64,000 bases of DNA from an uncultured virus (IMG/VR IMGVR_UViG_2061766007_000731) (Duplodnaviria > Heunggongvirae > Uroviricota > Caudoviricetes), in IMG/VR virus record IMGVR_UViG_2061766007_000731, one strand, 5' to 3'. Of the stretch, positions 9,122 to 64,000 are shown piece by piece; within the stretch, counting starts at the first letter, position 1; each line of letters begins with the position of its first letter. The translations under genes were made by a program, and so were the position numbers. A model generated the notes under the pieces. It had not been told where the DNA came from and ran no database searches. It saw nothing but the letters and a program-made list of their open reading frames with translations.

Positions 9122-9817
9122 ATGAATGCAAAAATTGCAAAAAACAAGTCATTACTAAAAGAATACGAGTGTAATGGAACTCGTACAGTTTATTTAAAAG
9201 ATGGAGATGAGTTTCAAATTCAATTATTTAATTCTGAAACTACAGAAATTGGGGCTGAAATTTATATTAACAATGAAAGATTATCTAATATAATAATTCT
9301 TCGTCCTGGAGAACGAGTATGATTAGAAAGATTCACAGATAAACCACAAAAATTTAAATTCAGCACTTATAATATAGATATCAATGATCCACAAGTAAGT
9401 AATGCTATTAAATTTAATGGAGAAGTTACAGTAAAATTTTATAAAAAGATGTCTAATAATATTTATTATTCTCCAAACATTACTTGAACTTATTATAATT
9501 CAACAGTTCCAACATATCGTAGTACAACAACAGATTATTCTTCTATAACAGCATCATCTGTTAAATCTTCTATTTTAAGTATTAATGATGTAGAAACTGG
9601 CAGAATTGAAGAAGGTTCTCATTCTAATCAAAAATTTAATAGTATTGATATGAATTTGGAATCGTATCCTTCTTGAATAGAAACAATTAAGATATTACCA
9701 GAATCTCAAAAGCCTATATATTCTGATGATTTACATAAAATATATTGTACTAATTGTGGTAGAAAATTAAAAACTATGTATAAATATTGCCCATATTGTG
9801 GTACTAAAATAGAATAA
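9122..9817 (+). CDS. Hypothetical protein with C-terminal zinc ribbon (TGA=Trp)
   Basis: Reads through TGA at 9320 (ERVWLERF) to a TAA at 9817; ends CTNCG...CPYCG. Confidence 0.8.
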
Positions 9818-9845
9818 AATAAATTTCACAACTCAAAAAAATTAC

Positions 9846-9878
9846 AAATCCTACTAATTTATATTAGTAGGATTTTTT
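9846..9878 (+). terminator. Intrinsic terminator
   Basis: aaatcctactaat/attagtaggattt followed by a T run. Confidence 0.8.
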
Positions 9879-9879
9879 A

Positions 9880-9911
9880 TTTGCATATATAATATATTTT
9901 TACTATATTTG
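9880..9911 (+). promoter_or_regulatory. Bacteroidota sigma-70 promoter
   Basis: TTTG-N20-TATATTTG. Confidence 0.75.
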
Positions 9912-9939
9912 CCGAAATTAACGTTAATGTGTAAAAATT

Positions 9940-12229
9940 ATGAAAATAAAAAAATATCAAAACGCTGGTGTATTACCGCGATTAAAGAATTTTGGTAGAC
10001 GTGTATTTAATACAATGAATTCTGTATCACAACAAGCATCTGAAAATATGAGAGATGTTCGTACTGGTACACTTCATTCTGATATAAAAGATTTACAAGA
10101 AAAAGGTAAATATGAAGAAGCTCAAAATTTAGCTAAAAATTATTTAAAAGCTGATGCAGCTGGTATTATGTTACCTGCAATAGCTTCCGAATTTGCTACT
10201 TACGGCTTATTAGGTGGTGGATTACGTCTTGGTGCTGGAACAGCAACTGGNNNNNNNNNNNNNNNNNACTGCTGGTGATTATGCTGATAAAAAATTAGGT
10301 ACTAATTGAATAGGTAATACTGGTCGTATTGTAGGTGGATTTGCTGGATTTGGTGTTGGCAGTAATTTAGTTAATCGTGGATTAAGAGGTTTAGCTACCA
10401 GGGGTATTACTATGCATATGCCACAAGAAACTTTTATGAAATTACGTGGCGAAGGGTTGGCTAGAGCAGCTAATAAAATTTTTAATACTAAAACTGTTCC
10501 AATAGGTGGAAAAGAAATATCAATAACACCAACTTCTTCAGATAATGGCAAAACTTATTGACGTTTATTTGAAAGACCTTCTAAAATAAATACAGCTGAA
10601 ACTCAAGGTAGACCAAAAGATATGAGATTTGATTATAATCTATCTGAAGCTGACTATAAAAAAGTATTATCTGATGCTAATGATTTTGCACAAAAATACG
10701 GATATTCTGAAATAAAAGATACTCCCGACGCATTAAAACAAATACAGGATATGTATCGTAGACATAATACTTTTGGCCGAACTATTACAGATCCAGATGA
10801 ATTTAATCCGGTTAATCACCACTTTGGTCCAGAACATCGAGGTTTAACTACAGAACAAAGAGCTAAGATTGCCGCAACAAAAGGATATCCTTATACATTT
10901 GGAGAAAAAAATCCAACAGATCGAATTTTTGTTACAGGAAGTCCAGAAGCTCTAGAAGGTTATGGTGCATCAGAACAACCTACACTTGCTGTTAGAAGAA
11001 GCGTATCATTAGGTCACAATCCTCTTAAATGAAGACAAAACGCCGAATTTACTTTAGGTGATTGAAGCAGAGAGATGAAACCAAATGAAGTAAGAGCTAC
11101 TGCTAAATATCAAGGTGGGTCTCATGAATTATTTTTAGGAACTGGAAACTTATCAGCAAAACCATTAATTTCTCCCACTCAATTATCTGGTGCTTTTAAT
11201 AAACCTGTCAATAATCCACAAATAGGATGATTACAACAACAAGGTTTTCAACTTCAACGCGATAACTTCCATAATTTGAATATTAAACACGATCTTCCAC
11301 GTTTTGCTGGTAAATCTGTTGATACAACTAATCCTACTGTAAGACAAACATTAGTACAAAAATATAGTGAAAGATACCCTCAATTTCAACAAACTCCAGA
11401 AAAAGAATTTGTTACTAGTGTGGGTGGATATTATGAAGTTGGCAAAATTCCTTTTACAGAAGATTTGAAATTACATAAAGACCTAATACGTAGAAGATTA
11501 GATAATTTTAATTCAGGTTGAAGAAGCGAATATGGATATTATACAGATCCCACTACACATATGGGAAATATGTATAGTGGTGAAAGTATTTTAAATAAAG
11601 CCGGAGAAAATGGAATTACTGTTGTTGTACCAAAAGAAAAAAGAGCGGGACAATTCGGTGGATTTTATAACCCTTCTGGATCTAGAGCTGGAGAGTCTTT
11701 TACAACAGCAGATGCTTGAAGATCGAAGCCTGTTAGATTTACTCAATTACACGAATCTGTTTCTCATCCTACTGACATGTTTGTTAGAGATATTAAATCT
11801 GATGTATCTGGTAAAAGTGTTAGAGATTTATATAATAGAGTTACTCAACCTTCTGATTTGTTCCCAGATTTTAAGAACTTCTTTAAACACAATGCCTCAG
11901 AATTATGATATGAGGGAAGATCTACAAATAATGAAATGATAAAACGTATTAATGAAATTATTTCTAAGAAAACTGGAAAAAGGCTAACAGAAGTATACAA
12001 TAATCCAGAATTATTAGAAACGTATATGGATACTAATTTAAAAACTAATGAACAATTAATATCTTTCTTAGAAAGTATGGATAATGGATATTTAGCAGAT
12101 TATGCTAGTTTACTAAAAGCAAAAGCTGGTACTAAAGAAGCAAATATTTATGCAAATAGAATTCGTAATATGATAAAAATTTTATTTGGAATGTCAGTGC
12201 CAATTGCTGTAGCATCTAAACAGAAATAA
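9940..12229 (+). CDS. Large putative virion cargo protein, ~760 aa (TGA=Trp; frame joined across an N gap)
   Basis: Track fragments at 10622, 11276 and 11936 share a frame and are separated only by TGA. Has N-terminal KKYQNAG, Gly-rich hydrophobic helices and a HESVSH motif. Confidence 0.65.
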
Positions 12230-12231: not shown

Positions 12232-12378
12232 ATGACACAACAGGAACACAATACATTAATAGAAAATAATTTAATGTTAAAAGAAATTATAATGTATTTA
12301 GCCAAACATTCGCAAGATGATACATTAAGACAATTTATAATTAATCTTTTAGCTGATAAAGTAGCAAATCAATGATAG
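12232..12378 (+). CDS. Small hypothetical protein
   Basis: MTQQEHNTLIENNLMLKEII...; ends TGA-TAG. Confidence 0.6.
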
Positions 12379-13652
12379 TATATTCACAAACAGCAAATTC
12401 ATCTCCAGAACTTCCAGAAATTAAAGGATATAAACCACAATTTCGCTATGAAGAACCAGGGGGGGATGAACTACAACAGGTACAACAACCTATTATTATA
12501 CAAGCAACACAAGAACCTACACAAGAAGTAGTTGAAGAAAAGAAACAAGAACAATATTCTCCAAATGAATGATCTGATATTCGTTCTATTATAAAAAGAA
12601 ATGAAGGGTTTACTTCTACTGCTAAAAAATCATTTAATGAACCTAACCCAACAGTAGGATATGGATTCTTTAATATACTTCCAGATGGTACTAAAATAAC
12701 AGATGGAATGATGTTATCTAAAGCTCAAGCTGATAAACAGTTAGACATAGCTATAGAAAAAAATACAAAACAGATACAATCTTATTTAAATAAATATGGT
12801 GTATCTGTAAGCCCAGAACAATTTAATATTTTACTTGATTTAGGATATCATGGCGGAAACGGTCTTGTAGATAAACTTCTTAGACAGTCTAATGGAGATC
12901 ATAATCAAATAGCGAATCTATTACAACGATATGCTACTACTGCAAAATATGGGGACGCTTCTATTAGTAAAGGTTTGAGAGATAGAGCTAGAAGACGCGC
13001 CGAAGGATGAAGAAAATATCCAGTAAAAGGTAAATATGGTTTGAAAATACCAAATGTTTTATTAGTTAAAGGGGGAAAAAGAATTTCTAATTTTACTAAT
13101 GGAGAAAAAACATTTACTGAACAATGTGCAGAATTTCAAAATACTATGCTTCGAAACGCTGGATATAGAACAAGTGGAAGTGCTTGAAATTTAAATGACG
13201 CTGATTTAGTATATTCTGGTTATATAGCTGAGAATAAACCAACTAAATATAATAAATATAAAGTTCAAAAATATAATTGAGCTGCTGCAAAAAAATTAGC
13301 AAATGAATTTGATACTAATCAATTAGACACAAATAAAGTGTATGTAACAAATATGTATTATAACGAATCGCCGTATCAAGAAACCGCATATAACGAAGGT
13401 CGAGATTCTATAACTGGAACTCACACTGGTTATATGTGATTTAATCCTGATACTAGTCAATGAGAAGTTATACATAATATACACGGCACTGTTCATGTAG
13501 ATCCATTATCAAGCATTAAAGGAAAAAAATATGGTGTTACTGCAATATACCAACCTAAAGAAAAAAATGTTATCGATAAAGCTATTGATTTAGGAAAACG
13601 ATTATCGAAAAGTAAATTAATACAAAATATATCAAATATACAAGCAAAATAA
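12372..13652 (+). CDS. Two-domain peptidoglycan hydrolase: GH24-like lysozyme plus Cys/His (CHAP/NlpC-like) domain (TGA=Trp)
   Basis: NEGF...TVGYG lysozyme motif, then EQCAEF...GSAW...THTG...IHN. 426 aa when TGA is read through. Confidence 0.7.
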
Positions 13653-13683
13653 AAGCCAACTCTAAATAGAGCTGGCTTTTTTT
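13651..13683. terminator. Bidirectional terminator between convergent genes
   Basis: aaaagccaactcta/tagagctggctttt. Confidence 0.7.
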
Positions 13684-14270
13684 ATTGCATTTATATGTAT
13701 TTGTGATATTATCGCTCGTCCTTGATTTGATTTAAGAAAATCTAAATCTTGTTTATTATCATAGAAAAGATTTTCTGTTAATATTGCTGGACATCGGGAT
13801 TGATATAATACTGTAAAATTTTCTTCTCAATCGGGATCTCCATCAGATCAATCTGCTCTTAATTTTTGTCCATACGATGGAAGTAATAATTGTGCTTCAT
13901 TAAAAAATAAAGTAGCATATTTATCACTATTAGTCAAACCTTTAGTTGTATATACACTTCAACCTCTGGCATTCATTCAATTTCCATTTCCTGCAGCATT
14001 AGCGTGAACTGAAATTAATAAACAATTGTTTCTATCATATTGATTACAATATCTATTTATACGATTTACTCTTTCTGATAGACTAATATCAGTAGTTTCT
14101 GGATTAATGATATGGTGGGAAATATTGTTTAATTTTAATGCCATATCAATCCGATTAACAATATCTTTATTAAATTCGTATTCATAAAATGAACTATCTG
14201 GTGATCTTTTACCAGATGTATTAGATCCATGTCCGGCATCTAATAATATAACCAATTTATTTAAATCCAT
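13662..14270 (-). CDS. N-acetylmuramoyl-L-alanine amidase (Amidase_3) endolysin (TGA=Trp)
   Basis: DAGHG, SVHANAAGNGN-W-MNARG-W-SVY and PAILTENLF motifs. 202 aa only if TGA is read through. Confidence 0.9.
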
Positions 14271-14271: not shown

Positions 14272-15150
14272 TTATTTTCTTTTTAATCTTGGATAAGCTG
14301 AGAAATCATCTTGACTATACTCAGATCTTCACCGTCTACCTTCTGGCGACATAGTTTCTCAAGCTTGTTCATACATCATGGTTGGATGTCATCTGTGCTT
14401 TAAATACTGATAATCTCCATTATTTAACTCTATGCCGCTTGGTAAATGATTAACTTCTGGATTACGTCTTCACATTTCCATTTCTTCATACGAAAGATTA
14501 TTAAACGCAGATTCTAAATCATAATATTGAGTATTATTATATTCTTGTGGAACAGTATTATATCAATTACTATATTTAGGTTTTTCCTTAAAATAATAAG
14601 GAGATGCTTTTCAATCTTGTTTTCCTACTTTTTTATTTGGGTCTAATGCTCTGCCATAAGCATCGACTTTAGCTGGATTTCAATCATAAACATCTCTAGC
14701 CATTGCTCTTCTGGCAGCAGATCGTATCCCCAATCATCCATTTTCAGCAGAACCATGATCTAAGTGTTCTGCAATTTTAATAGGATCTGTTTCTCCACTA
14801 TCCAATATAGTCATTAATTTTGGAGATTTGTTGATAAGCTTATTTACACCTATATTGTATGCTGTTTCTAATAAAGCTCTTCTAACACCAAGAGATAAAT
14901 TGTCTCAATTCTTTATTCTTTGTTTTAGTACTTTTTCATTACTATTATAGTCTTTAACTATTTGAGCATCAGCTTCTTCTTTAGTAATACTACCTTTTGC
15001 TATTAAAGCAGGATCAGCAGATCCTCAACCAATTAGTTTTTGTCCTCTAACTGTAATTACTTTAGGAGAAAATGTTTCAAAAGATTTAGTAAAATTGATT
15101 AAATCTGTATCTAATCCAGCTTGTGCTTTATATATTCTTTTTAATTTCAT
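14272..15150 (-). CDS. Lysozyme-like (GH24-type) protein with C-terminal extension (TGA=Trp)
   Basis: FETF...LIGWG...ITKEEAD...ALLETAYNIG. 292-aa frame broken only by TGA and absent from the ORF track. Confidence 0.7.
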
Positions 15151-16002: not shown

Positions 16003-16950
16003 ATGCCGAAATTAAAAAATATTGAGGAAAAGTATATTAATGGTATTAAAGTAGATAAAGAAAACAGTTATGTGTTTTTTAATGACGAAACTCATAAATA
16101 TTACGATAAAGAAACAATGCAAGAATATGTTTCTGTAACTACTTTAATTCATAATTATACTCAAGAATTTANNNNNNNNNNNNNNNNNNNNNNNGCATTA
16201 GAAATGTTTTTAGAGCCAGAAATTTTTTATCCCGTAAAGAAAACATTGCTTGCTACTAAAAAAGTAAATAAAAAATTGATTAAAAAACTTAATCTTAATG
16301 AAGAAGAATTTTTAGCTAAGCAAGAAGAAATAAAAGCTGAATACGCACGTAAAAGGGAAGAATCGTGTATTAGAGGTACAAATATACATGCAATTTTTGA
16401 GAACTCTTTTTACGGAAAAACACATTTTGATTTTACTAAATTTGGTTATAAAGATCTTGTAGGTGATTTTATTTGTAATGAAAATTATTATAAATTAGAT
16501 TTAGAAAAAGGAGTTTATCCAGAATTTTTAATATCTGTGGCATCGAAAGATAATATATTACGAGTTAGTGGACAAATTGATTTACTTGTTGTAGATGGTT
16601 ATGATATAATAATTATAGATTATAAAACTAATAAATCTATTGATAAAACAAGTTATTACGATAAATCTAAAAAATCTAACATAATGATGAAATATCCGTT
16701 AGATAATCTACAAGATTGCAACTTTAATCATTATCAGTTACAATTAAGTTTATATGCATACATGCTTCAACAAATTAATCCAGAATATAATATAAAATCT
16801 TTAAAAATTATTCACATAGATCATGATAACAAACAACACGAATATGAATGTGAATATTTAAAAAATGATGTTGAACGTATGCTTAAACATTACAAAAAAC
16901 AAATTAAAGTAAAACAAGAATTAGAAAAATTAAAACCAGTGATATGTTAG
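16003..16950 (+). CDS. PD-(D/E)XK exonuclease (Cas4/RecB-like)
   Basis: GTNIHA, GQIDLL, IIDYKT and YQLQLSLY motifs. Confidence 0.85.
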   Translation: MPKLKNIEEKYINGIKVDKENSYVFFNDETHKYYDKETMQEYVSVTTLIHNYTQEFXXXXXXXXALEMFLEPEIFYPVKKTLLATKKVNKKLIKKLNLNEEEFLAKQEEIKAEYARKREESCIRGTNIHAIFENSFYGKTHFDFTKFGYKDLVGDFICNENYYKLDLEKGVYPEFLISVASKDNILRVSGQIDLLVVDGYDIIIIDYKTNKSIDKTSYYDKSKKSNIMMKYPLDNLQDCNFNHYQLQLSLYAYMLQQINPEYNIKSLKIIHIDHDNKQHEYECEYLKNDVERMLKHYKKQIKVKQELEKLKPVIC

Positions 16951-17153
16951 AGGATAGATTAAAAATATGTGAAAAATGTCCTCTTTGGAAAGATACTTTA
17001 AATGGTCCTATATGTAATCCTAACAAATGGATAAACCCCAAAGATGGTAAATCTTCTTTCTTTCCCAAAGATGGATATATAAAAGGCTGCGCTTGTTTAT
17101 TAAAACAAAAAGCTGCTAAAAAAGAATCTCATTGTATCATTGGTAAATGATAA
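16944..17153 (+). CDS. Small Cys-rich zinc-binding protein
   Basis: CEKCP...GCAC...HCIIGK followed by TGA-TAA, giving a C-terminal GKW. Confidence 0.75.
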
Positions 17154-17157
17154 TACT

Positions 17158-17340
17158 ATGAAAATTATAAATATAATAGAAGGGTGGTATCGTAGATTAT
17201 TTAAACCACTTAATGAACATGAAAAGCACAGATTAATAATTTGTAATAATTGTGAAAAAAGGCAAAAACTTATAGGTAATGAATATATTTGTTCTATTTG
17301 TGGATGTCCTATAANNNNNNNNNNNNNNNNNNNNNNNNNN
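17158..17340 (+). CDS. Small Cys-rich protein (end in N gap)
   Basis: RLIICNNC...CSICGCP. The track fuses it to the next gene only through the Ns. Confidence 0.55.
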
Positions 17341-17344
17341 NNNN

Positions 17345-17721
17345 NNNNNGAAAATATTTTAAATAATAGTTTAAAAAATATAAATAATGATGATGTAGAG
17401 ATAGTTCCATGTAATACTAATGTAATTGTCAAATTTTATGAGGAAAATCCGTATAGATATGTAGAAACTACTGAAAATGGATTAATTCTTGGAATTGAGG
17501 CAATAAATCACAAATCTAATGATTCTGGAGAGATAGAAGAAAATCAACCAGGAATTGTGTGTGCTAAAGTTATAGCGATAGGGCCTGATTGTAAAAATGT
17601 GCAAATTGGAGAAGATGTATATATATCTACTTTTACTTCTGTTCCAGTTCCTTTTAGAAACAAAGGATATAGAGCTATTACTGAACAAAATATTATATGC
17701 AGATTAGTTAAAAATGAATAA
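17345..17721 (+). CDS. GroES-like co-chaperonin (start in N gap)
   Basis: PCNTNVIVK...TENGLIL...AKVIAIGPDCKNVQIGEDV...EQNIIC. Confidence 0.7.
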
Positions 17722-22162: not shown

Positions 22163-22430
22163 AGAAATCATTGAAGAAGTAACAAATAGTAAATATATTG
22201 GTAAATTAAAAGTAATTGAAGAGCCAATCAATGATAGCACACTTTGAATGTTACTCCTTTATTTAGATTTGGAAATAACTCCTATGATTCTTGCATATGA
22301 AGGTACAGAAAATGATTTTATAGAATTTATTACAAAAGAATTAAAATTGAGAAAACTTCATACAGTAAAATTTTGAAAAGCTATTCAAGAATCTCATAGG
22401 AACGAATTTATAGAATGCGATGGATCGTAA
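22137..22430 (+). CDS. Hypothetical protein between TerL and portal (TGA=Trp)
   Basis: 97 aa with two TGA codons; overlaps both neighbours. Confidence 0.7.
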
Positions 22431-46805: not shown

Positions 46806-46806
46806 T

Positions 46807-51819: not shown

Positions 51820-53256
51820 ATGAGAATATCAGGTTTTACTACCACTCGGCCTAATATGGCCAGTACACGTCTTGCAGAAGATTTTATGAAATTTCTTGGT
51901 ACGAAACCACAGCGTTTAGGTATTGTTTCTACATTATACGATCAATATACGGCTACTCATCTTACTGAGTCTTTAATGAATACCTATACCATGGAGCGTG
52001 GCAAGAAGGGATTTCAATCTATTAATTCATTCTTAATTGAATGGGATCTTCAAGTAAATAAGATTAAGAAACTCCCTATTATCGCCGCTCCTGAAGGAAC
52101 TGGTGTTAATGGTTGTGATGTTAAGTTCTACTTTGGTGAGAACTATTATCAGATGTATGATACGTTTGTGGTTGAAAAGACTCGTCAGCAGTTCTTTGTA
52201 ACTAGCATGCCTCAGAGACTTCGTGATAATTGCTTCCTTGTTATTGCTAAGATTCTTGATAACAACTATGATTCTGTTGTTGATTACGGTGGAGCTACTG
52301 CTGATGCCATGATTGGTCTTCAAACTCGTTTCGTTACTAACTACCATCCAGAAATGCACGATCGTGGTTATGTCAAATATCAGAGCAATGTAGAAAAGAT
52401 GCGTACACATATTAGTACTCATCGTGTTGATGTTGACATGTCTGCTCAGTATCAGGCTATGGAAGATATCTTTATTCAGATTGGTAAAGGTCAGGACGAT
52501 GACCCTGTTTACAAAATGAATACTGCTGAGAAAGATTGTTTAGATTCTTTCATGGAAGCTCGTAACAACGCTTTACTTTATGGTAAATGTGATGTTGATG
52601 AAACTGGCAAACCTAAGATTTACGATGAAATCGGTCGTCCTATCATAACTGGTGATGGTGTACTTCCTCAGATTGAACGTTTTGCTACCAAGTTCGTCTT
52701 TAATAAGATGAACGTTAACTACTTCGAGAAAGCTCTTCAGACAATGGTAGCTAAGAGTGAAAAGGCTCAAGGTAACAGCTATGTTTTACTTTGCAATAGT
52801 GCTTTCTATCATGAGTGGCAACGTGTAATGTCTGCTTGGATTGGTGACAAGAAGACTGATGGCGCTTTCTTATATTCTAAGGGTGCTAATGGTTACATGA
52901 ATCTTGGTGCTACATATGAAGGTTATGAATATGGTGGCAATAAGATTATTGTTAAGATTGAGCGTTCACTTGATGTAGAGTTTGCAAATCGTAAATATGC
53001 TGTAATGCTTGACCTCACTGCTGATGCAGCTACTGGTAAGCCAGCTATTGCTTACTTTACTTTCAAGGGTGGTGATTTCATCCACAACTTTATTAACGGT
53101 GTTGGCGGCAGCACTGGTTTAGCTTCTGGTGAAGTTTCCAGCCCTGTTGCAGCTCGTAAATTAATCAACTGGGGCTATGCCGGAGTTGGTGTATTTAATC
53201 CTTATAGAAGCGTTATCCTCATGTCTGAGGAAAATCGTGATAGCTTCTGGGCTTAA
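51820..53256 (+). CDS. Major capsid protein (crAss-like)
   Basis: 478 aa with strongly biased codon usage, follows the scaffold gene; IITGDGVLPQIE and GVGVFNPYRS motifs. Confidence 0.85.
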   Translation: MRISGFTTTRPNMASTRLAEDFMKFLGTKPQRLGIVSTLYDQYTATHLTESLMNTYTMERGKKGFQSINSFLIEWDLQVNKIKKLPIIAAPEGTGVNGCDVKFYFGENYYQMYDTFVVEKTRQQFFVTSMPQRLRDNCFLVIAKILDNNYDSVVDYGGATADAMIGLQTRFVTNYHPEMHDRGYVKYQSNVEKMRTHISTHRVDVDMSAQYQAMEDIFIQIGKGQDDDPVYKMNTAEKDCLDSFMEARNNALLYGKCDVDETGKPKIYDEIGRPIITGDGVLPQIERFATKFVFNKMNVNYFEKALQTMVAKSEKAQGNSYVLLCNSAFYHEWQRVMSAWIGDKKTDGAFLYSKGANGYMNLGATYEGYEYGGNKIIVKIERSLDVEFANRKYAVMLDLTADAATGKPAIAYFTFKGGDFIHNFINGVGGSTGLASGEVSSPVAARKLINWGYAGVGVFNPYRSVILMSEENRDSFWA

Positions 53257-53350
53257 TTTTTAATTTAGAATATATAATTCCCCTCTCTTTAATCCCTCTA
53301 TAAAAAGGGAGGGGATTTATATATAATTAGTTTTTTATTAGATAAAATAT

Positions 53351-54208
53351 ATGACAGATAAAATTATACTCCGTAATGTATATGGTAAGATGAAGGAAAT
53401 TCATATTCAGCCTGGTAAACAGCCTAATGGAAATAGATGGCCATTTGTAAAACCAGTACGTTATGATTCAATGGGTAATGCTGAAATGATTTTAAGTCAA
53501 GATGAATTAAATGATCCTGGTCGTGAATTCTTCCTTCCAGAAGACATGGATATTGTTCTTGTAGATGGTAAGGTATTTGATCTTACAAACCCTCTTGAAA
53601 AGAATATTTGGACATCGATTCAGTATTCTGATTTGATTGCTCCTACTCGTGGATCTAGAGATAAAAACGGCAATCTTTATATCGATGGCAGTAAAACTCG
53701 ATATGGTACTGCTGAATTCTATGTAGATATTCCTGGTGAAGAATCTGCTAGAATTGTAAAGAAAAGACAAAAAATTACCGAAGCTTGGACTTTGATTGGT
53801 CAGGATTCTGAATCTGGTAGATTAACAAAGACTAAACTTTTAGGTAAAGTTATGATTAATGCTCCTGCTACAGATGTTGAAAAATTCTTGTATGACAGGG
53901 CTACAGACAATCCTGATGAAGTTATTGAATTATATAAGGGGAGTGATGCTGGATTGAAACTTCTTCAGATTGATGCTAAAGATAAGGCTATAATTATCAA
54001 GAAAGACGGTATGTATGTATATGGTGATACTATTCTAGGTGCTACCGATTCTGCTGTTTTACTCTTTTTTAAAGAGCCTCAGAATCAAAGAATACTACAG
54101 TTAATTAAAAATGAAACTTATCCAGAATATGCCGCCAGATTGACTCCTATTACAGAATCAATTGAACCTACTACAACCGTTAAAAAGACTACTACTTCGA
54201 AAAAGTAA
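53351..54208 (+). CDS. Conserved crAss-like protein downstream of the MCP
   Basis: 285-aa ORF at the syntenic position after the MCP. Confidence 0.75.
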   Translation: MTDKIILRNVYGKMKEIHIQPGKQPNGNRWPFVKPVRYDSMGNAEMILSQDELNDPGREFFLPEDMDIVLVDGKVFDLTNPLEKNIWTSIQYSDLIAPTRGSRDKNGNLYIDGSKTRYGTAEFYVDIPGEESARIVKKRQKITEAWTLIGQDSESGRLTKTKLLGKVMINAPATDVEKFLYDRATDNPDEVIELYKGSDAGLKLLQIDAKDKAIIIKKDGMYVYGDTILGATDSAVLLFFKEPQNQRILQLIKNETYPEYAARLTPITESIEPTTTVKKTTTSKK

Positions 54209-54265
54209 TAAAAATAAATATAGAGATAGGCATAGTCCTCGTAATTAATTGATATTAAACTTGTT

Positions 54266-55222
54266 ATGACGGCAAGGGAAATGTATGAATACGCTCTTAT
54301 TGAGCTTAATAAACTTGAGGCGCCTAGTCTTTTACTTGAGGACTATAATTATTTTATAAATAAGGCGGTTCAGCAATATATTAATTTGATATATGCTAAA
54401 CTTGAACTTGATCAACAAAGTGTAGATGATTTACGTGTATTAAAAACTTCTACAATACTTATTCCAGCTCCATTAACAGATGCTGTTGTTGGTAGTTCTG
54501 GATTAATTCAAAATAGTTTATTAGGGCAATCCTATTATGCAGATTTACCTAATGATTATTTTCATTTAATTAATTGTATTGTAGAATATCAAGTACAAAA
54601 TAATTTTAAATGTTATAATAATGGTGATGCAGTATTTTTTGCCGCTCGTAGATTAACTTCTGATATGTATGCTCAAATTATTAATAATGCATATTTAAGA
54701 CCTACGTATAAAAGACCTTATTATTATTTAAATAATATAAATCAACGCATTACACCTCTTCCTACAGATTCTACTATGGATACTAATATATTAAATTATA
54801 ATAATGGTAGTGCCGATAAAGGAACTGTTGGGACGCACGGCAGTAATTATTCTAGCGGTAGTTATAATTCTTCTAATCTATTAGATTCTGAAAATACAGC
54901 TGGAGATAGATTAGCAAATCCTTCTATTGTACGATTAGAACTTAGATTTGGAAAAGATGCCAGTATATTTACTCCAACCCGTCTTTATGTAGACTATGTA
55001 AAAGCTCCTATGTATATTAGACTAACACAGGAACAAATTGATGCTACACTTGATTATTCTCAAGTTCTTGAATTTCCAGATTACGTTTGTTTTGAAATTG
55101 TAAATATTTTTACTAGATTATTAATGGAGAACGCTAGTGACCCTAGATTACAAACAAATATGCCTATTAATAATACTATTGTAAATCCTGCTTTACAACA
55201 ACAGCAAACACAACAAAAATAA
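54266..55222 (+). CDS. Tail ring/neck protein-like
   Basis: FINKAVQQYI...DDLRVLK...ELRFG...DYVKAP...LEFPD. Confidence 0.7.
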   Translation: MTAREMYEYALIELNKLEAPSLLLEDYNYFINKAVQQYINLIYAKLELDQQSVDDLRVLKTSTILIPAPLTDAVVGSSGLIQNSLLGQSYYADLPNDYFHLINCIVEYQVQNNFKCYNNGDAVFFAARRLTSDMYAQIINNAYLRPTYKRPYYYLNNINQRITPLPTDSTMDTNILNYNNGSADKGTVGTHGSNYSSGSYNSSNLLDSENTAGDRLANPSIVRLELRFGKDASIFTPTRLYVDYVKAPMYIRLTQEQIDATLDYSQVLEFPDYVCFEIVNIFTRLLMENASDPRLQTNMPINNTIVNPALQQQQTQQK

Positions 55223-55239
55223 ATAAATAGAAAATAATT

Positions 55240-56298
55240 ATGTTTAATTATATTAAAGACGTTATTATTAACGACGTTACGAATACTGTCGTTAAAGATA
55301 GTTCCACTAATACTCTTGTTATCAAACGTGGTGCTAATTATAAATTTGATAATATTATAGATAAAAAGGTTTATAAAACCGTCGGTGTTCAGGGTAGTGT
55401 TGCTACTTTAACAATTCCTTTTGTTGCTACTACTGCTACCTATGATTATTATCAGTTTGCAATTTTTGTATCTACTCCTAGTCAGCAACTTTCTGATTAT
55501 GCTCTTGCTAATTGGCATGAATTTGGCAAACCTATTCTTTTCGAATCTGCTGCTGCTGATGTTAACGCATTATGTGAAACCTTTAAGCTTATGCTTCAGC
55601 CAGATAACGAAATGTATACAGCTGAAGTTGAGAGCTCTAGTGTAAAACTTACATTTGCTGAGCCTTGGATGAAGGTTGCAGAAGTTAGTATTTTCAAGCA
55701 CAATGCTACTACCGGTGAATTAGAGGCTGATACTCGTGAAATTACTAAAGTTGATAATGTTGAAGATTTTGCTACTGCTAAATGGCTTGTTGAAAACTTA
55801 CGCTTCCCTAGCTATCCTAATCTTCGTTACAACCGTTTATATTCTGATGAAGCTCCTGTATCTGGTACAGTTTATGATCAGTATGCTTTCCAATATGGTG
55901 TTAAACATTATATTGAAGGTGGTTTAAGTGGTGTTGGTCAAAATGTTGATTCCATTACCACTCATGTATTCTACGTGCCTCATGCTCAGGCTTCTACATT
56001 TGAAGGTAAATTTGACGGTTGTGAATTTGTAACCGATAAGAGTATTGTTTCTAGCATGAATGTTTATGCAAATGAAACTAACGCTGTTGCTTCTGCAGCA
56101 TCTGCTGCTGCTTCTACAGCATCTGCTGCTAGTACAAGTACTGCTGCAACCAGTGCTCCAACGTCTACGACTATTGGTAAGGTTGGTGATACGATTGTAT
56201 ATAATGGTGACATTTATACTTGTACAGCGGTTACTCCAGCTGAAGGTACTACCCCTGCATCTTATACTTGGACTAAGACTTACGATCATAACGCCTAG
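55240..56298 (+). CDS. Abundant structural protein (auxiliary capsid/decoration-like) with Ala/Ser/Thr linker
   Basis: 352 aa with MCP-like codon bias, followed by a terminator. Confidence 0.7.
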   Translation: MFNYIKDVIINDVTNTVVKDSSTNTLVIKRGANYKFDNIIDKKVYKTVGVQGSVATLTIPFVATTATYDYYQFAIFVSTPSQQLSDYALANWHEFGKPILFESAAADVNALCETFKLMLQPDNEMYTAEVESSSVKLTFAEPWMKVAEVSIFKHNATTGELEADTREITKVDNVEDFATAKWLVENLRFPSYPNLRYNRLYSDEAPVSGTVYDQYAFQYGVKHYIEGGLSGVGQNVDSITTHVFYVPHAQASTFEGKFDGCEFVTDKSIVSSMNVYANETNAVASAASAAASTASAASTSTAATSAPTSTTIGKVGDTIVYNGDIYTCTAVTPAEGTTPASYTWTKTYDHNA

Positions 56299-56320
56299 TA
56301 TAGAAATAAAGAATAAAATA

Positions 56321-56362
56321 GAAAAGAGCGAGTGAGAGAATATCTCGCCCGCTCTTTTATTT
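56321..56362 (+). terminator. Intrinsic terminator
   Basis: aaaagagcgagtgaga/tctcgcccgctctttt. Confidence 0.7.
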
Positions 56363-56376
56363 TAAATACATATGCT

Positions 56377-57033
56377 ATGACACTATCCGAAATAAGTTCC
56401 GCTGTATTTAATGACCTTTTTGGAGGCGCTATGATTCCTCCATCTAATCGATCATTAATATCATTAGAACAGCTTGAAGATGAAGCTATTGAAATACGAA
56501 AGTCTATAATTAAGGAGTTTTATCACAGAAATATGCTTTCCTTTAATGACATTGCATATAGTATAAATTGTATAGAAATTGATTGCAAGGATATGAACAT
56601 GTGTCCTTGTAAATCATTACCTGGTAAAATTGCCCAACATTTTGAAATTCCTAGATTATTGGATGGGTTGGGAAATAATGCAATTTTATTTATAGGTAGC
56701 GTGGATAGAAGCGTATCTTATAAAGTTTATAATAGTATAAGTACCGCAAATTATCAAATTTATAAAAAAAGAAGTTCTACAAAACCATATGTTTATATTA
56801 ACAGAACTCCAAATGAAAATGGAATGTTGGATGGTTGGATAATGAACGCTCCTTTTGTAAAATATATTTCTATTACAGCTATATTTGCAGATCCTAGAGA
56901 TTTGGAAGGTTTTAACTGTTGCCAATCTGAGCAATATTTAGAAATGGGATCTTTAAGTCATGAAATTNNNNNNNNNNNNNNNNNNNNNNNNNNNNNNTTT
57001 ATCGTACTATCGTTCCTCCTGCATCTCAATTAA
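56377..57033 (+). CDS. Tail ring protein-like (end uncertain, N gap)
   Basis: MTLSEIS...ITAIFADPRD. Confidence 0.65.
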   Translation: MTLSEISSAVFNDLFGGAMIPPSNRSLISLEQLEDEAIEIRKSIIKEFYHRNMLSFNDIAYSINCIEIDCKDMNMCPCKSLPGKIAQHFEIPRLLDGLGNNAILFIGSVDRSVSYKVYNSISTANYQIYKKRSSTKPYVYINRTPNENGMLDGWIMNAPFVKYISITAIFADPRDLEGFNCCQSEQYLEMGSLSHEIXXXXXXXXXXFIVLSFLLHLN

Positions 57034-57042: not shown

Positions 57043-57738
57043 ATGAGTAAATTATATCATTTTAATTCGGCGTTTTCTTTAGTAAAAACTTTATATGATC
57101 TTGAGCCAGACGTAGAAGATTTTGAGGATTTGGCGCTTACTGCTTATGATTTAATAGGAAATAAACATACTAGATTATATAGATATGTTGCTGATACACA
57201 ACATAGAGAATTAGAATTACCTTGTAACGCGTACGATATTGAATCCGTGCATATTCCAATTGTAGATGCACAAGTAACTAGTAATAAAGATATTTATCAT
57301 AATTTTGATTCTATTGCAATAGAGCGTTATATTGATGCTTGAAAAATGTTAGAAGATCCTTTTAATCAACGTGGTAAATTAGTTAAATATACAGAAGGTG
57401 GAGATAAATTATATTTTAATCGCGATTATCATAGAGTTATGGTTGTTTATCATGGAATTCTTGTAGACGAAGAAGATGGTTTGCCAATGATAAATGACCG
57501 TGAAATGAGAGCTATTGCTGCGTATATTGCTTATGCGTTATATTTTAAAGAAGCGTTGAGAACTAAGAATAAAGATACTATGGCTTTTGTTCAAATGTTA
57601 AAAGAAGATTGACTTCGTAAATGCAATGCGGCTAGAATGGTTGATCATTTAAGCCAAAATGATATGAATAAAATACTTGATGTAAAAAGTAGATGAGATA
57701 GAAAACATTTTGGTTTTTCGTATAAGCCGATACTTTAA
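57043..57738 (+). CDS. Tail tubular/ring protein-like, 231 aa (TGA=Trp)
   Basis: ELPCN...YHGILVDEEDGLPMIND...AIAAYI...ED-W-LRKC; fragments in frame. Confidence 0.75.
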
Positions 57739-57741
57739 TAT

Positions 57742-58191
57742 ATGAGTTTTATAAATTCTAGTTTTTGTTTTACATCATACGATATATTTAGTACATTTAA
57801 TTTAAAACAATTAAAAATTAAGAGAACTACTGTTCAAGATAAATACGGATGTAATAAAAAACAATCTTTTTGTGCAACAGTGTTTACATATTGTTGCTAT
57901 CTAATTCTTTTGGATATTATTCAAAATAATGCTACCTTTGTGTTACCGCTTTTTAATAGTAGATTTGCTTGTATACATATAATACCTATTAAAGGAGAAC
58001 GTCTTCAAAAAGCAAGACAAGCTGGAGCCTTTCAAGATATTGATTTGTTAATGAGTAATTTTACCGGATATCAATTAAATTTTACTTGAGAAAATAAATA
58101 TAATTCAAGGCAAAATAAACCTATACATATTAATAAGCGATTTAAAGATGTATTAATAAAATATATAAATGAAGGTAAACAATATTATTAA
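57742..58191 (+). CDS. Hypothetical protein, possibly IHF/HU-like (TGA=Trp)
   Basis: LDIIQNNATFVLP; reads through TGA at 58087 to TAA at 58191. Confidence 0.65.
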
Positions 58192-58703
58192 TGGAAATTA
58201 AACGTATTGAAGATTATTACGATAAGATAAAAGAAAAATATCCAGATTTAGAAACTTGAGAAATTGAAAAAATATTAAAACACGGATTTCAATCATTATA
58301 CACATTAAATAATTCCGGAGCAGATGTTATGATCAAATCAAGTACTGGTTTTTTAATGNNNNNNNNNNNNNNNNNNNNNNNNNNNNNNNNNNNNNNNNTT
58401 AATTATTTACATAAAAAACCAATTTGAGACGGCAATTATTACTTTGGATTGACAGAAGAAGATTACAATGAGCTAATTCCAAAAAAGCGTGGTAGATATA
58501 AACGTAAGATAACTTTTTTAGAATTAAAAGCTTATAAAATTAGAGAAGAAGCTTGTCTATATTATAAAGTAAAATATTTGTTTAAATTAACTGGTGAACA
58601 AGATCGCGGTTTAATATTTAAAGAAAAGAATTACTCTACTAGGAACATAGAACTTGTTGCAATTAGAGAAAAAAATGGAAAATTTAAAGACATAAATGGC
58701 TAG
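58191..58703 (+). CDS. Hypothetical basic protein (TGA=Trp; N gap)
   Basis: TAATG coupling; in frame with the 58449 fragment. Confidence 0.65.
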
Positions 58704-61700
58704 AAAAGAAGCTATAAATACATTTTCTGATGGATTGGTGTTGGACTTAAATCCAATAAATACACCTAATACAGTACTTACAGATTGTCTTAACGGCACT
58801 TTGATAACATACGATGGAAATGAGCAAAGTTTGCAAAATGATAAAGGTAATTATCCTTTAAAAGATTGCAAACTTCCTGCCAATTATATACCTGTTGGTG
58901 TAAAGGAGTATGGAGATATATTATATATTGTATCTTATAATCCTATCACCAATCATGTTCAAATAGGATCCTATCCTTCTCCAGAAACTATTTTTGATGA
59001 ATTTGATATTCAAGGAAATGATTCTACTGCATCAACTTATGACAATAATTTAAAATATACTGTAAGTTCTTTATGAAACCAAATTGCTGAATCTCCATAT
59101 AACGGTATAATTAATTATTCAGAATTAGCAGAAGTTTTAGAAATTTTAAAATTATTTTATGGATCTGTACCAGAAAATTATAAAATAAATCCTGGAGATA
59201 AATATAAAATTGCTATAACAAATGGAGCTGCAAATAATCCATCATTTATTAATAATTTAGATTTACAAACATTTGAGGGTATTGAATTTTATATATTTGA
59301 TGAAAATCGTAAACCATATGATATCACAAAAGACATTGAAATAAATACTCAAAATCATATATATACAAACTGAAAAATACCAGGATATTTGGCAACTAAA
59401 CTTAGATTTGCGCAAGTTGATGATTTTAAAGTTAATGTTCGCAAGATTATTGTACCAACATATCATGTTCAAGGACAAAGTGCAGTAAAAGAATTATCTT
59501 TAAATTTTCAATATTTTATATCCGATTATTTATATAATGATCATATTAATGCGGCGAAAGATGCATTAAAAATTAAAATTGAAATTTTTGATCAAAATGG
59601 ATCTAAAGGCGATCCTATAATTTGATCAATTAACGATACTGTTGATTTAAAAAACAACACAATTTGTTATTATAGTAATTGAACAATGGAAAATGTATCA
59701 TTTAATTCAAATGATATAATTACATTAATAATTACACCTTTTGTACAATATACTAATAAAAAAGTATTTTATGATAAATTTAAAAGAACTTTAACGTTTG
59801 ATTTGTCTCAAAAAGGTAATGTATCTGATTTTGAAATTGGTGAAGGTATATGGCGTTACACTGTAGATGATCAGTTAACTCTATATTTTGATACAATCGG
59901 TATTCAGGAATCTTCTGTTATGTCTGAAGATNNNNNNNNNNNNNNNNNNNNNNNNNNNNNNNNNNNGAATTTGCAAATCAAGCCGCTGTACAATCTTGAA
60001 TAGAAAATAATACAGGTTGAAATACTGTTTACGATTGAAATGTTATTGGAGATACAATATTAAAAATCGATTTTGATGCATGAACTGGTATAATTGAATC
60101 TGGAAAAATATATGCAGAAGATTATTATAGAATAGCTTTTAGATTTATTGATCCTAATTCTAATGGAGTATTACGTTCTGATATAACAAAAACAATATTA
60201 GCTACAGAATTATTAAATGGAAATTCTGCAAAAAAATATGATAAAATTTACTTCGACGAATGAATAAATAATTATTCAAATCATATTAAAAATAAATCTA
60301 TTACTATAAGTGCCAATATTGATCAAAATAGTATTACAACCGACCCATTAGTTCAATATGATGAAACTTATAATAATTGATATTATAATTCAGAACTCGA
60401 TGATTATCCAACGTATATCAATTATACAAAAATAAATTCTGACAATGGAATTCCAAGTTTTAATGTATCTTCCGAATTAAAATTTAATACTAATATATCA
60501 TATGGATCTGATATTGAATTACTTAAAGGTCCTTTGTGGAATAATCTTACGTCTCAATTAAATTATACTGATACAAAATCTACAAATATAAATAGTTCTA
60601 CTGGAAAAGTTGTAGACGCTACTGTTTCCGCATCTTCCGTAGGCTCTGTTAAAAAAACATTGAATTATAAATTAATTCAACAAGCTGGCCCTGATCGAAT
60701 TGTTGCAATAGAATCGACAGATCTTAATGTGCCTAAAGAAGAAGATATAAAAATAACAGCAGATGGTTTATATGAAGATAAAATAAGCAAAAAGGGTTTA
60801 CCTACACCTGATTTAGAAATTACTATTAATGGTTTTCCTGCAGATACTTATATAGTTAGTTCTAAAACATATAACATTTCTACTGCTACTAAACTTTTAG
60901 GAATGTTTAATGATAAAGATGTTTTATTTTGTACATTAGAAATACCTAATCAAGTTCGTGGTGATGATACTAATCCAAATAACGATAATCATAACGTATT
61001 AAAGTTTAAAACAGGAGAGGATTTAGAAGAAGGCGGATACGTTTATGCTGCCGCTGATGGGACTACAACATCGAATACATATTACGCCGTATTTAAATAT
61101 CCCGCAAGAAGTTCGGAAGATCAAACAAAATTATTATTTGTTAGAGTTGGAAATTTAAGTGGAACTAATAATAATATTACTTCAAGTAGTGCTAGTGTAC
61201 ACTCTGCATATGTATTTTTTGAAAATTGGGCGTCTAGAATTAAACATCGTAAAGGATTAGGATATTCTATTATTGGAAATTTTTATAAAGCAGAACAATC
61301 TACATCTTCTACTAGNNNNNNNNNNNNNNNNNNNNNNNNNNNNNNNNNNNNNNNNNNNNNNNNNNNNNNNNNATGTTTGATACTATAGCTCGTTCTAATA
61401 TTAGCGATAATGACAATTTTTTTAAGTTATCAGATACTTCAAATAATATAGACTTATTTTCTGGAATTTCTTTAGAAAAAGGAATATTAGAAATACCTTA
61501 TNNNNNNNNNNNNNNNNNNCTGTTTTAAGCCAAGTTCAACAAAATATTAGTGATAGAAATTCTTTAGTTGAAAGTAATATTATAAGTTGAAATGCAGATA
61601 CTTTTATTAGGGCACATTCTAGCGAAAGTGATGAAAATATAAATGAGTATTACTATGAAACAACATCATTAAATGCAAATGATGGCCCATTATTACAAAT

Positions 61701-61848
61701 GTTAAACAAAACTTGAGTTTGTGATACTCCTGTTATGTTTTTAACTTCAGATAACTGATTTGTAAGTGGTTATGGGCATAATCTTCCTTATAGATATACT
61801 CAATTAAATTATATAGGTATTGCTCAAATAGATATAGCTATAACATAG
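58696..61848 (+). CDS. Tail stabilisation/muzzle-like protein, ~1050 aa (TGA=Trp; joined across N gaps)
   Basis: N-terminus NTFSDGLVLDLNP...LTDCLNGTLIT.DGNEQSLQNDKGN; TAG stop at 61848. Confidence 0.65.
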
Positions 61849-61849
61849 T

Positions 61850-64000
61850 ATGGACATAACATTAGAATTAAAAAAATATAATCAGGAAGGTGATATGGCT
61901 CATGAGTACAATCCTTTAAGAAATATACTTAATGAGGAAAATCAAATTGTTGATTTTGATACAGATGAGCTTGGAATCGATTTAAATCACCCTTTAAATT
62001 TAGAATGCCAACCTTCCTATGATGGTACCGTTAATTTAATAATTAATGACGATNNNNNNNNNNNNNNNNNNNNNNNNNNNNNNNNGGACGATCATTATAA
62101 AATTATAAATCGTAATCAAAAAGAGCAAACAAATCTTTATAAAGTTGGAAAGATTGATCAACAAACAAGATTATTTAGAAACATAAACTCTATTCCTAAA
62201 ATTGATTTAATCAATGTAACTAATGTTGGTCAATTAATGGGAGGTAATTATACATTTTATATTAAGTTTGCTGATAACGATTATAATAAAACCGATGTGG
62301 TTGCAGAATCCGGAATAGTTTCTATATTTAAAGGCTACAGTAATAGAATACACACTATATCTGGAACAATTTTTAATGAACGTACGGATAAAGCGATCAA
62401 ACTTCGTATATCTAATGTAGATACATCTTTTTCTAAAGTATATATATATTATATAAGAGAGACTTGTGATCAAAATGGAGTTAGAATAACTACAGCTGGA
62501 ATGTATAAGCAGCCGTATGAGATTCGCGATAAGATTTTAGATGTTGTCATCAATGGATTTGAAGATGAAGAAACGTTAACTCCAGAAGAAATTAATATAC
62601 AGTATAACATTGTCACTGCTGTTAAAACGCAAGCTCAAGTTCAAAATATGTTATTTTTTGGAAATGTTCAAAGTAATATCTTGGATGTTAAAAATTTACA
62701 GAACATTTCTTATTTTATTCCTGTTACATTAAAACAAAAAGAAAACATAGGTTGAATTAGCGCTAAAGATTATNNNNNNNNNNNNNNTCAAACAGAATAT
62801 TATAGTACTAATAATATATATTATAATCTTGGATATTGACCGGATGAAATATATAGATTGGGCGTAGTATATATATTAAAAGATGATTCTTTAACTCCTG
62901 TATTTAATTTAAGAGGGCATAATTTTACTAAAGTTTCTGGAGATAATAATATAGAATGAAACTTTGATCGTACTGAGGAATTGTATACAGATGGTAAAAT
63001 GAATTATCTTGAACGTGATGAATTTTTAACAACAAAAAAGTTTCTCGATAATACTTTTGGAGTATTTAAAACACCGGACGCTACAATTATTAATTACGAA
63101 GAAACTAGCGTTTATAATAGTCAATCTGTAAAACCGTTATATTTTCATATAGAAATTACAAATGAAATTAAAAACGCATTAAAAGAATTTAATGTAAAAG
63201 GGTTATTTTTTGTAAGACAAAAACGCATACCTACTAATTTAGCACAAGGATTTTCAATTGGTATTGATCGTATTAGTTATACACCTATTATTTGAGATAG
63301 TACTAGAAATAGTGGACAAGGTGCTTATATTGCAGAAAGTTTTTTAACTGAAGATAATACTTTAAGTACTAGTTTCGAATCTCATATCATTGAAACTCAA
63401 AATTCGCAGTGTTCAGGTTTGTTGTGTGTAGACGCAATGGTAAATCCACAATTACAGTCAAACTTTGATGGAAGCGAATTTATATTAAAACCTCAATTTA
63501 GATCAAGAAACGGTAATACTTTAACTAGAAATAAAAGACATTATTATATTAAAGATACCGCCGCNNNNNNNNNNNNNNNNNNNNNNNNNNNNNTATGTTG
63601 ATTCTGGTACACCAATGAAGTACATTAATGGTTTAGGATATTCTACTAAATGTGGTATGGCAGAGGATGTTAGTAAGTTTTCATTTTTTTCTGAAACAAA
63701 TAAACGTGATGCTACTAATAAAATTTTAAGAGGTGTCTATTGTCCATTTTTAGGAACTAATCAAAATTTAGATAAAAATGTTGTATATACTATAAAAGTT
63801 CCTAATTATTCTGGAGCTTTAATTAAAGATTATTTTTCTATTAGAGGGAAAGATACTACTCCATTTTTTGCTATATCTGATAGATATAGTATTGATAATA
63901 ATTTTACAGTAGACTGTTTTAGAGGTGATTGTTATTCTAATACAGTAACTGTTAGAATAAATAGAAATTTTGTTGATTCTGAAGTTCCAGTAACTGATAT
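61850..64000 (+). CDS. Large tail (muzzle-like) protein, runs off the window (TGA=Trp)
   Basis: GNYTFYIK, QVQNMLFFGNV, LGY-W-PDEIYRLGVVY and FRGDCY motifs. Confidence 0.75.

Follow-up and report, generated by a model that had tools for sequence, protein, structure and literature searches.

The 64,000-nucleotide (nt) stretch analysed here, referred to throughout as the window, is IMG/VR record IMGVR_UViG_2061766007_000731 from an uncultured virus of the Caudoviricetes. A short left arm of minus-strand open reading frames (ORFs) free of in-frame TGA is followed by a long right arm whose reading frames are broken by TGA under the standard code. An earlier note on this DNA had proposed that the late genes of the right arm use TGA as a tryptophan (Trp) codon. 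Comparison with the DNA of relatives supports this meaning of TGA, and the distribution of TGA among the genes is patchy.

Genes and features of the window

The features on which the argument rests are as follows, with in-frame TGA and TGG counts where applicable.

1139 to 8611, minus strand: left arm of eight ORFs; 0 TGA, 10 TGG (Fisher p = 7.5e-6 against the rest)
8612 to 9000: intergenic boundary of 389 nt separating the TGA-free arm from the recoded arm
8999 to 9030, plus strand: Bacteroidota-type promoter (TTTG, 20-nt spacer, TAnnTTTG) preceding the first recoded gene
9122 to 9817, plus strand: zinc-ribbon protein, the first recoded gene; 3 TGA, 0 TGG
10214 to 12229, plus strand: 671-residue protein with no assigned function; 8 TGA, 0 TGG
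12372 to 13652, plus strand: Phage_lysozyme-domain protein; 6 TGA, 0 TGG
13662 to 14270, minus strand: Amidase_3 endolysin (Pfam, 87.9 bits); 4 TGA, 0 TGG
14272 to 15150, minus strand: second Phage_lysozyme-domain protein; 10 TGA, 0 TGG
16003 to 17721, plus strand: PD-(D/E)XK nuclease and GroES-like protein; jointly 0 TGA, 1 TGG
19952 to 22162, plus strand: TerL, 736 residues (phrog_6681, E = 2.6e-71); 11 TGA, 3 TGG
22420 to 24618, plus strand: portal, 732 residues (phrog_6547, E = 3.2e-51); 4 TGA, 0 TGG
25529 to 31600, plus strand: mosaic tail-fibre protein, 2023 residues; 19 TGA
31763 to 34174, plus strand: BspA-type leucine-rich-repeat protein (LRR_5, 249.6 bits); 3 TGA, 2 TGG
34191 to 34757, plus strand: CBM_5_12-domain protein; 8 TGA, 1 TGG
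39804 to 46805, plus strand: giant structural protein, 2333 residues; 36 TGA
46807 to 50112, plus strand: giant structural protein, 1101 residues; 11 TGA
51820 to 57033, plus strand: capsid block of five genes; 0 TGA, 13 TGG (Fisher p = 4.7e-8)
57043 to 63628, plus strand: six more structural or tail genes; 24 TGA, 4 TGG

All 20 Trp codons of the three lysis genes are TGA and none is TGG. TGA also predominates among the Trp codons of the packaging, fibre and tail genes, and the two giant proteins (39804 to 50112) together hold 47 TGA and 10 TGG. No IMG/VR relative of the second lysozyme-domain gene (14272 to 15150) was found. Twenty-three masked runs of N, 1,403 nt in total, interrupt some frames, and because these runs break the frames the gene borders at 9940-10290/10214-12229 and 58696-60003/59850-61388 are uncertain.

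Reading frames and terminators

Translation table 11 yields 72 ORFs of at least 100 residues in the window, mostly short, and leaves the right arm fragmented; under table 4 the right-arm fragments merge into long genes. The cover of 9001 to 64000 by long frames (stop to stop, at least 300 residues) rises from 0.249 under code 11 to 0.722 when TGA is opened, against 0.253 and 0.300 in controls with TAG or TAA open instead. A list of 49 ORFs, compiled from table 4 and further ORF calls on the window, comprises 18,534 codons with 170 in-frame TGA, 80 TGG and neither TAA nor TAG in frame; in the two off-frames of each gene, TAA and TAG occur by the dozen. TGA and TGG together make up 1.35% of these codons and TGG only 0.43%; Trp frequency is normal provided that TGA is counted as Trp. 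Among the 48 complete ORFs (the 49th exits the window) the terminators are TAA in 33, TAG in 14 and TGA in one, minus-strand ORF 7589-7879, which has a TAA two codons downstream. No ORF of the window requires TGA as a stop.

These counts agree with the earlier note, which had described right-arm fragments lying in frame and split by TGA only, proposed a comparison of tables 4 and 11, and stated that the joined genes close with TAA or TAG, as is true of 47 of the 48 complete ORFs. The Trp residues of the motifs that it quoted are TGA codons (ARG-W in the amidase, YKAASG-W in the BspA-type protein, RP-W-EKEA in ORF 50116-50577 and NG-W-HFSKK in ORF 37450-37860), and its figure of eight TGA among the nine Trp codons of the CBM_5_12 protein was reproduced. 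For annotation, the consequence is that table 11 fragments about half of the window and that the right arm needs to be read with TGA as Trp.

Relatives carry Trp codons at TGA sites

The amidase, CBM_5_12, portal and TerL genes were compared codon by codon with the DNA of IMG/VR relatives. TGG or TGA accounts for 622 of the 973 codons aligned to TGA sites of the window (hand-summed over the four genes), against 380 of 74,459 codons aligned to its non-Trp sites. Trp codons form the majority at 15 of the 25 alignable TGA sites, and Gly codons, the meaning of TGA in code 25 (used by phages of Absconditabacteria or Gracilibacteria), at none of the 25. TGG aligns to TGA of the window even in relatives whose own copy of the gene has no in-frame TGA. 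The columns at TGA sites of TerL, portal and amidase, which the earlier note had singled out for alignment, are thus enriched in Trp rather than lacking it, and its claim that TGA means Trp is upheld at the codon level.

In the amidase, TGG occupies residues 98, 104 and 148 in 80/80, 78/80 and 79/80 loci (the best 80 of 151 relatives); two loci carry TGA at residue 104, and residue 141 is variable (Asn or Tyr). The ARG-W position of the amidase, read as Trp by the earlier note, is Trp in this wider set, whereas the one amidase relative in the PDB has Ile at that column and neither supports nor refutes the reading. Up to 35 loci were available for the CBM_5_12 protein, and Trp codons are in the majority at seven of its eight TGA sites, the exception being residue 105 with 3/34. 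Across 46 portal loci, from a scan of IMG/VR that reached relatives up to 83% identical, the four TGA sites align to TGG or TGA in 29/46, 40/46, 35/40 and 34/40 cases, the remaining codons being chiefly Tyr or Phe, and the relative's own portal gene contains in-frame TGA in 35 of the 46 cases.

For TerL, a distant set of 38 IMG/VR loci (39-62% identical over the best segment, with TerL genes free of TGA) was obtained with search words that included W, presumably back-translated as TGG alone. TGG stands at W64 in 38/38 of these loci. At sites 290, 328, 482 and 709 it is found in 10, 8, 14 and 4 of 35-37 loci, with mainly Phe, Tyr, Ile or Leu codons otherwise. Sites 584 (Tyr/Met) and 655 (Cys) are never Trp in this set, nor are sites 27 and 733, which aligned in 10 and 2 loci only; sites 7 and 55 did not align. 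Among 48 closer homologues (56-88% identical, chosen from the best 120 of 834 matches), W is the commonest residue at eight of 11 TGA sites and invariant at four, although some of these proteins are perhaps table-4 translations and are weaker evidence than codon counts.

Phage identity and large relatives

The major capsid protein (MCP) of the window matches PF23898 Crass_capsid (41.8 bits, cut-off 27), and the PHROG families hit by TerL and portal are likewise of crAss type. TerL proteins of named crAss-like phages share 27-30% identity with that of the window, whose closest match among 50,697 GenBank phage records is 49.3% identical. Relatives found through the portal are listed below with their portal identity, size and tRNA content.

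G001: portal 83% identical; 100 kb fragment; no tRNA at all
G002: portal 68%; 146.8 kb; tRNA(UCA) of 72 nt
G003: portal 62%, with 6 TGA; 176.9 kb, terminal repeats; 8-9 tRNAs, none UCA
G004: portal 58%; 176.8 kb, terminal repeats; tRNA(UCA) of 94 nt
G005: portal 59%; 166.9 kb, terminal repeats; tRNA(UCA) of 93 nt
G025: portal 56%; 163.7 kb; tRNA(UCA) of 94 nt
G033, contig 111: portal 64%; 143 kb; tRNA(UCA) of 73 nt

The complete relatives measure 167-177 kb, bear direct terminal repeats and give 9-25 matches to Rfam tRNA models; a Zeta-type genome would be expected to span 145-192 kb, and the window itself covers 64 kb only. No giant RNA polymerase gene was recognised in the window, no dedicated test having been made. 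The Zeta assignment is drawn from the size of the relatives, their intron-split MCP genes and distant crAss similarity, not from a tree. We hold with high confidence, jointly with the reading of UGA as Trp, that the window is a stretch of some 64 kb from a large Zeta-type crAss-like phage.

TGA-free blocks and a mosaic fibre gene

The TGA share of Trp codons is 0/13 in the capsid block, 0/10 in the left arm and 170/227 in the other right-arm genes. The capsid block contains the Crass_capsid MCP, three genes of unknown function and a ring-protein-2-like gene (matching below its cut-off). The MCP genes of G004 and G005 (59-60% identical) likewise have no internal stops, and those of G001, G002 and G003 are split into 3-7 pieces lying hundreds of bases apart; the MCP gene of the window is intact, as are those of G004 and G005. 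The proposal that late genes are recoded therefore holds for the lysis, packaging, tail and fibre genes and fails for the capsid block, which is at odds with any simple rule of this kind. The capsid genes, as the most highly expressed of the late genes, do without TGA both in the window and in two relatives about 60% identical in the MCP, which speaks for suppression being costly or slow. The left arm and the capsid block hold no TGA, and these parts of the genome could equally be read in the standard code. Seven of the left-arm ORFs (all but 1896-2828) were scanned and gave no Pfam or PHROG match, no IMG/VR relative of left-arm ORF 4243-4752 was found, and to call the left-arm ORFs early genes is a guess.

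Within the fibre gene the choice of Trp codon tracks local GC content. Residues 224-1242 and 1658-1664, where local GC is 0.46-0.58, hold 20 TGG and no TGA, and the AT-rich flanks (GC 0.23-0.43) hold 19 TGA; one extra TGG at residue 2015, past an N-run, is probably outside the true frame. Such a pattern suggests that modules imported from standard-code DNA retain TGG while resident AT-rich DNA has shifted to TGA, and the GC-rich fibre module may have come from a standard-code donor and still be unconverted. More widely, GC-rich islands (0.44-0.58) are seen in the middle of the fibre gene and in several left-arm ORFs (5637-8611) against a background of 0.23-0.35, and look like imported modules.

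tRNA searches in the window and its relatives

ARAGORN found no tRNA in the window, and neither did Rfam models at gathering scores or at E-values up to 1. With lowered thresholds ARAGORN returned only implausible long-intron calls, with no UCA among the calls listed, and an unfiltered covariance model of the relatives' long tRNA(UCA) detected no copy in the window. All three approaches bear out the earlier remark that no tRNA-Trp(UCA) is visible here. Masked runs of tRNA size lie at 1447-1518 and 38749-38819. Directly beside the first of these, an 81-nt non-coding stretch (1529-1609) is 87.7% identical to a stretch of G004 (L233:489-569).

A Trp-type tRNA(UCA) is present in five of the six large relatives found through the portal, with a discriminator G and a Trp-like body in all five. 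In G001 to G005 neither a release factor (RF-1 domain) nor a tryptophanyl-tRNA synthetase (TrpRS; class Ib synthetase) was found. The surroundings of the relatives' tRNA(UCA) genes share no synteny with the window and gave no guide to where such a gene is to be expected.

In the long tRNA(UCA) genes (93-97 nt), among them those of G004, G005 and G025, two anticodon-type hairpins stand in tandem. Arm 1, with the loop CUUCAAA and thus the UCA anticodon, occupies the usual position behind the D arm. Arm 2 follows after a 5-9-nt linker, with a 5-bp stem and a 7-nt loop that preserves UCCA of the Trp anticodon loop, and beyond it come a variable loop of the normal 4 nt, the T arm and the discriminator G. 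A scan of IMG/VR with a pattern covering the 3' half of the D stem and arm 1 only gave 30 loci, of which 29 are two-armed tRNAs and one is a chance match.

Two-armed tRNA-Trp(UCA) loci: L231:2188-2281 (minus strand), L235:13970-14062 (plus strand) and L264-L293
G022, complete carrier: long-frame cover 0.247 under code 11, 0.506 with TGA open
G032, complete carrier: long-frame cover 0.348 under code 11, 0.514 with TGA open
G017, complete carrier: long-frame cover 0.504 under code 11, 0.563 with TGA open

The 29 loci represent 27 distinct sequences, all with UCCA in arm 2, the loop of which is near-invariant across them. With G004 added (28 sequences), the arm 2 stem shows compensatory changes in four of its five pairs and 91.9% of cells pair. 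For the whole two-armed structure 98.1% of cells pair against 78.9% after shuffling, and none of 500 shuffles reached the observed value; these pairing figures may be inflated by related sequences. Only one of the 27 carrier records searched (all except that of G005) holds a portal like that of the window, which indicates that the two-armed design is distributed over several phage lineages. G017, G022 and G032 each also hold an ordinary tRNA-Trp(CCA), and in G017 the arm 1 stem is identical to that of the neighbouring tRNA-Trp. When the two-armed tRNA was compared with the 50,697 GenBank phage records, each of its halves matched annotated tRNA-Trp genes, but no record covered 80% of the query. 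Full-text literature searches, judged by titles and the openings of abstracts and excluding the supplements of recoding papers, turned up no published description of a two-armed tRNA.

Within the window the covariance model scored highest (17.5 bits) at 7265-7337 on the minus strand. The 73 nt there resemble a tRNA in having a perfect 7-bp acceptor stem, a canonical T arm (GTTCGATTC) and an encoded ACCA, but they lack a D stem, and the anticodon-type arm forms a long hairpin without a UCA anticodon. This tRNA-like element was missed by default ARAGORN and Rfam and was not found in G001 to G005.

Arm boundary, promoters and host

TAnnTTTG is the -7 consensus of Bacteroidota promoters. Full TTTG-N17-23-TAnnTTTG sites lie upstream of 9122, 9940, 15529 (two sites) and 50708. 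The stretch 8991-9046, which consists of TTTG, an AT-rich spacer, TAnnTTTG and then GCAAAAATAA, recurs in several copies in each of G001 to G005 and is probably the common promoter of this clade. Over the whole window TAnnTTTG is not enriched (100 against 87.7 +/- 9.7 expected), while the intergenic sequence to the right of 8600 (3,969 nt) contains 17 copies against 5.6 +/- 2.5, a number reached in none of 500 shuffles. The host-type promoters described in the earlier note are thus borne out as a roughly threefold intergenic enrichment and not as a property of the window at large. A scan for the motif YTTCAR was uninformative. A standard-code Bacteroidota host is plausible.

The boundary at 8612-9000 folds better than each of 100 shuffled versions on both strands (z = -7.09 on the plus strand, -5.24 on the minus strand), and it showed no Rfam family match of note and no tRNA. 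A 78-nt part of it is 81% identical to a stretch of G005 that likewise lies upstream of a similar promoter.

A proposed model for UGA decoding

Our data strongly favour a model in which a crAss-like phage of Zeta type reads UGA as Trp in its lysis, packaging, tail and fibre genes and terminates translation with TAA and TAG. Most likely, a tRNA-Trp derivative with anticodon UCA would be encoded by the phage beyond the window and charged by host TrpRS, and on accumulating it would outcompete host release factor 2 (RF2). TGA-containing genes might then be completed only after the tRNA has accumulated, giving recoding a possible role in timing, and the TGA-free genes (left arm, nuclease/GroES-like and capsid block) would be translatable in either code. 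In AT-rich resident DNA, TGG may have drifted, or been selected, towards TGA. The tRNA(UCA) genes of the relatives, together with the absence of RF-1 and class Ib synthetase genes, point to a host-charged phage tRNA(UCA) as the likely decoder, and this phage is likely to possess one.

Several observations weigh against this model. Of the nine TGA sites that can be aligned with the distant TerL relatives, eight lack a majority of Trp codons, and those for Phe, Tyr, Ile, Cys, Leu and Asn are the most frequent at them. Not a single tRNA was detected within the 64-kb window, so that a suppressor in this phage is deduced from its relatives, and G003, complete with direct terminal repeats and with a recoded portal, has no tRNA(UCA). 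The timing model fits the TGA-free capsid block poorly because capsid genes are late genes. As no ORF requires a TGA stop, the window alone cannot prove that any of its genes is translated in the standard code. Finally, the labels of the metagenome-assembled genomes (MAGs) in which three related contigs were placed conflict (Phocaeicola, Roseburia and Oscillospiraceae), and were not used.

Host TrpRS requires the anticodon CCA. Arm 2 of the two-armed tRNA may be a handle that lets the host enzyme charge a UGA-decoding tRNA and, if so, would show a viral solution to the problem of charging a suppressor tRNA. More broadly, there is a modest chance that UGA decoding in this clade does not rest on an ordinary suppressor, involving instead the two-armed tRNA or, as in G003, no tRNA(UCA) at all. 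This phage could be of either kind, and if it resembles G003 the structured RNA of 8612-9000 would be a candidate decoder.

Relation to known recoded phages

The phenomenon itself is already published, including recoding of part of a genome and genomes lacking a suppressor (PMC7886860, PMC12386605 and bioRxiv 10.1101/2021.08.26.457843), and the earlier note was right that recoded crAss-like phages were known (PMC7886860, PMC12386605). Recoding of TGA to Trp or TAG to Gln was described in 243 crAss-like phages, mostly limited to the genome parts with late genes and in imperfect agreement with suppressor tRNAs (PMC7886860). The same work reports that the MCP gene of Zeta-group phages is split by introns; one Zeta MCP gene in Yutin et al. 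2021 (PMC7886860) is without in-frame stops, as here. Its material is circular assemblies from the human gut microbiome, to which the window adds one further genome fragment.

Zeta phages are further described as having opal recoding of TerL, structural and lysis genes, with tRNA-Sup(TCA) in some and no detected suppressor in several opal-recoded genomes; members such as Lera and ct1yV3 have genomes of about 160-190 kb with blocks of tRNA genes (PMC12386605). As in these two phages, TGA splits the TerL, structural and lysis genes of the window, table 4 repairs them, and relatives have Trp at the TGA sites (PMC12386605). Unlike them, the window contains no tRNA, the likeness to Lera being to its published description. 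A model in which recoding times lysis has been proposed, with suppressors detected in 35% of code-4 genomes (bioRxiv 10.1101/2021.08.26.457843). As in Agate and Jade from that study, structural and lysis genes are recoded here and the lysis genes strongly biased (bioRxiv 10.1101/2021.08.26.457843). Avoidance of TGA by the capsid block is a difference from both phages as described there, and whereas Jade encodes RF1 and TrpRS, neither was found in five relatives of this phage. The present analysis adds a capsid block without TGA, Trp codons that follow base composition inside a single gene and, in relatives, the lead of a two-armed tRNA.

Alternative explanations

In Mycoplasma and Spiroplasma, which use code 4, UGA is Trp and is read by tRNA-Trp(UCA). 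A phage that merely follows such a host would also need no TGA stop, and the AT-rich genome fits a host of this type, as would the placement of two of the three related contigs in MAGs labelled Bacillota if their conflicting labels were given any weight. In those bacteria, however, the code change is genome-wide and cellular, whereas here it is viral and patchy, with TGA at 0/13 in the capsid block and 0/10 in the left arm against 170/227 in the remaining right-arm genes. The relatives own a tRNA(UCA), in G017, G022 and G032 alongside a tRNA-Trp(CCA), Bacteroidota-type promoters are enriched in intergenic DNA, and published host predictions for such phages are standard-code bacteria. A native code-4 host is therefore very unlikely. 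Also unlikely, though less remote, is decoding of UGA as Trp with no tRNA(UCA) from the phage. The work could then be done by a tRNA-Trp(CCA) of host or phage that accepts UGA as a near-cognate codon, by a phage factor weakening RF2, or by a non-canonical RNA overlooked by tRNA finders. This possibility draws on the lack of any tRNA match in the window, on G003 and on the low share, about 35%, of code-4 phages with a detectable suppressor (bioRxiv 10.1101/2021.08.26.457843); a paper on UGA-reading tRNA-Trp(CCA) with 4-bp anticodon stems also exists (PMC13092985). It has to contend with the tRNA(UCA) carried by five of six large relatives, with the roughly two thirds of the genome that lie outside the window if its size is that of the complete relatives, and with the 23 masked stretches inside it.

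Whether TGA might specify another residue, namely Gly as in code 25, Cys or selenocysteine, turns on the aligned codons. TerL residue 655 has Cys codons in 35 of 37 distant loci, and ARAGORN tags the tRNA(UCA) of the relatives as 'SeC'. The 48 closer homologues, however, have W in 26, Y in 14 and C in eight cases at TerL 655, and the contrast between Gly majorities at 0/25 sites and Trp-codon majorities at 15/25 speaks for Trp. Selenocysteine fits poorly with 170 sites in structural proteins, and both halves of the two-armed tRNA(UCA) resemble tRNA-Trp genes, leaving another residue barely credible. That the TGAs are genuine stops, in broken genes or through assembly errors, has nothing found in its favour and can be practically discounted: 170 TGA stand against no TAA or TAG in 18,534 codons whose off-frames are rich in both, and relatives have TGA at identical portal sites.

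Structured RNA elements of the left arm

GOLLD RNAs often adjoin phage tRNA genes. A full-length match to GOLLD RNA (RF02032) lies at 85-472 on the minus strand (79.9 bits, E = 4e-20, gathering score 150), with several conserved GOLLD motifs aligned, and its position suggests that a tRNA block may sit just left of the window. The relatives gave no GOLLD match, but control genomes were equally silent and the search is uninformative. Directly upstream of the minus-strand ORF 4243-4752, the minus strand at 4778-4829 matches the twister ribozyme of type P1 (RF03160) at 51.4 bits (E = 1e-9), under the gathering score of 67.2.

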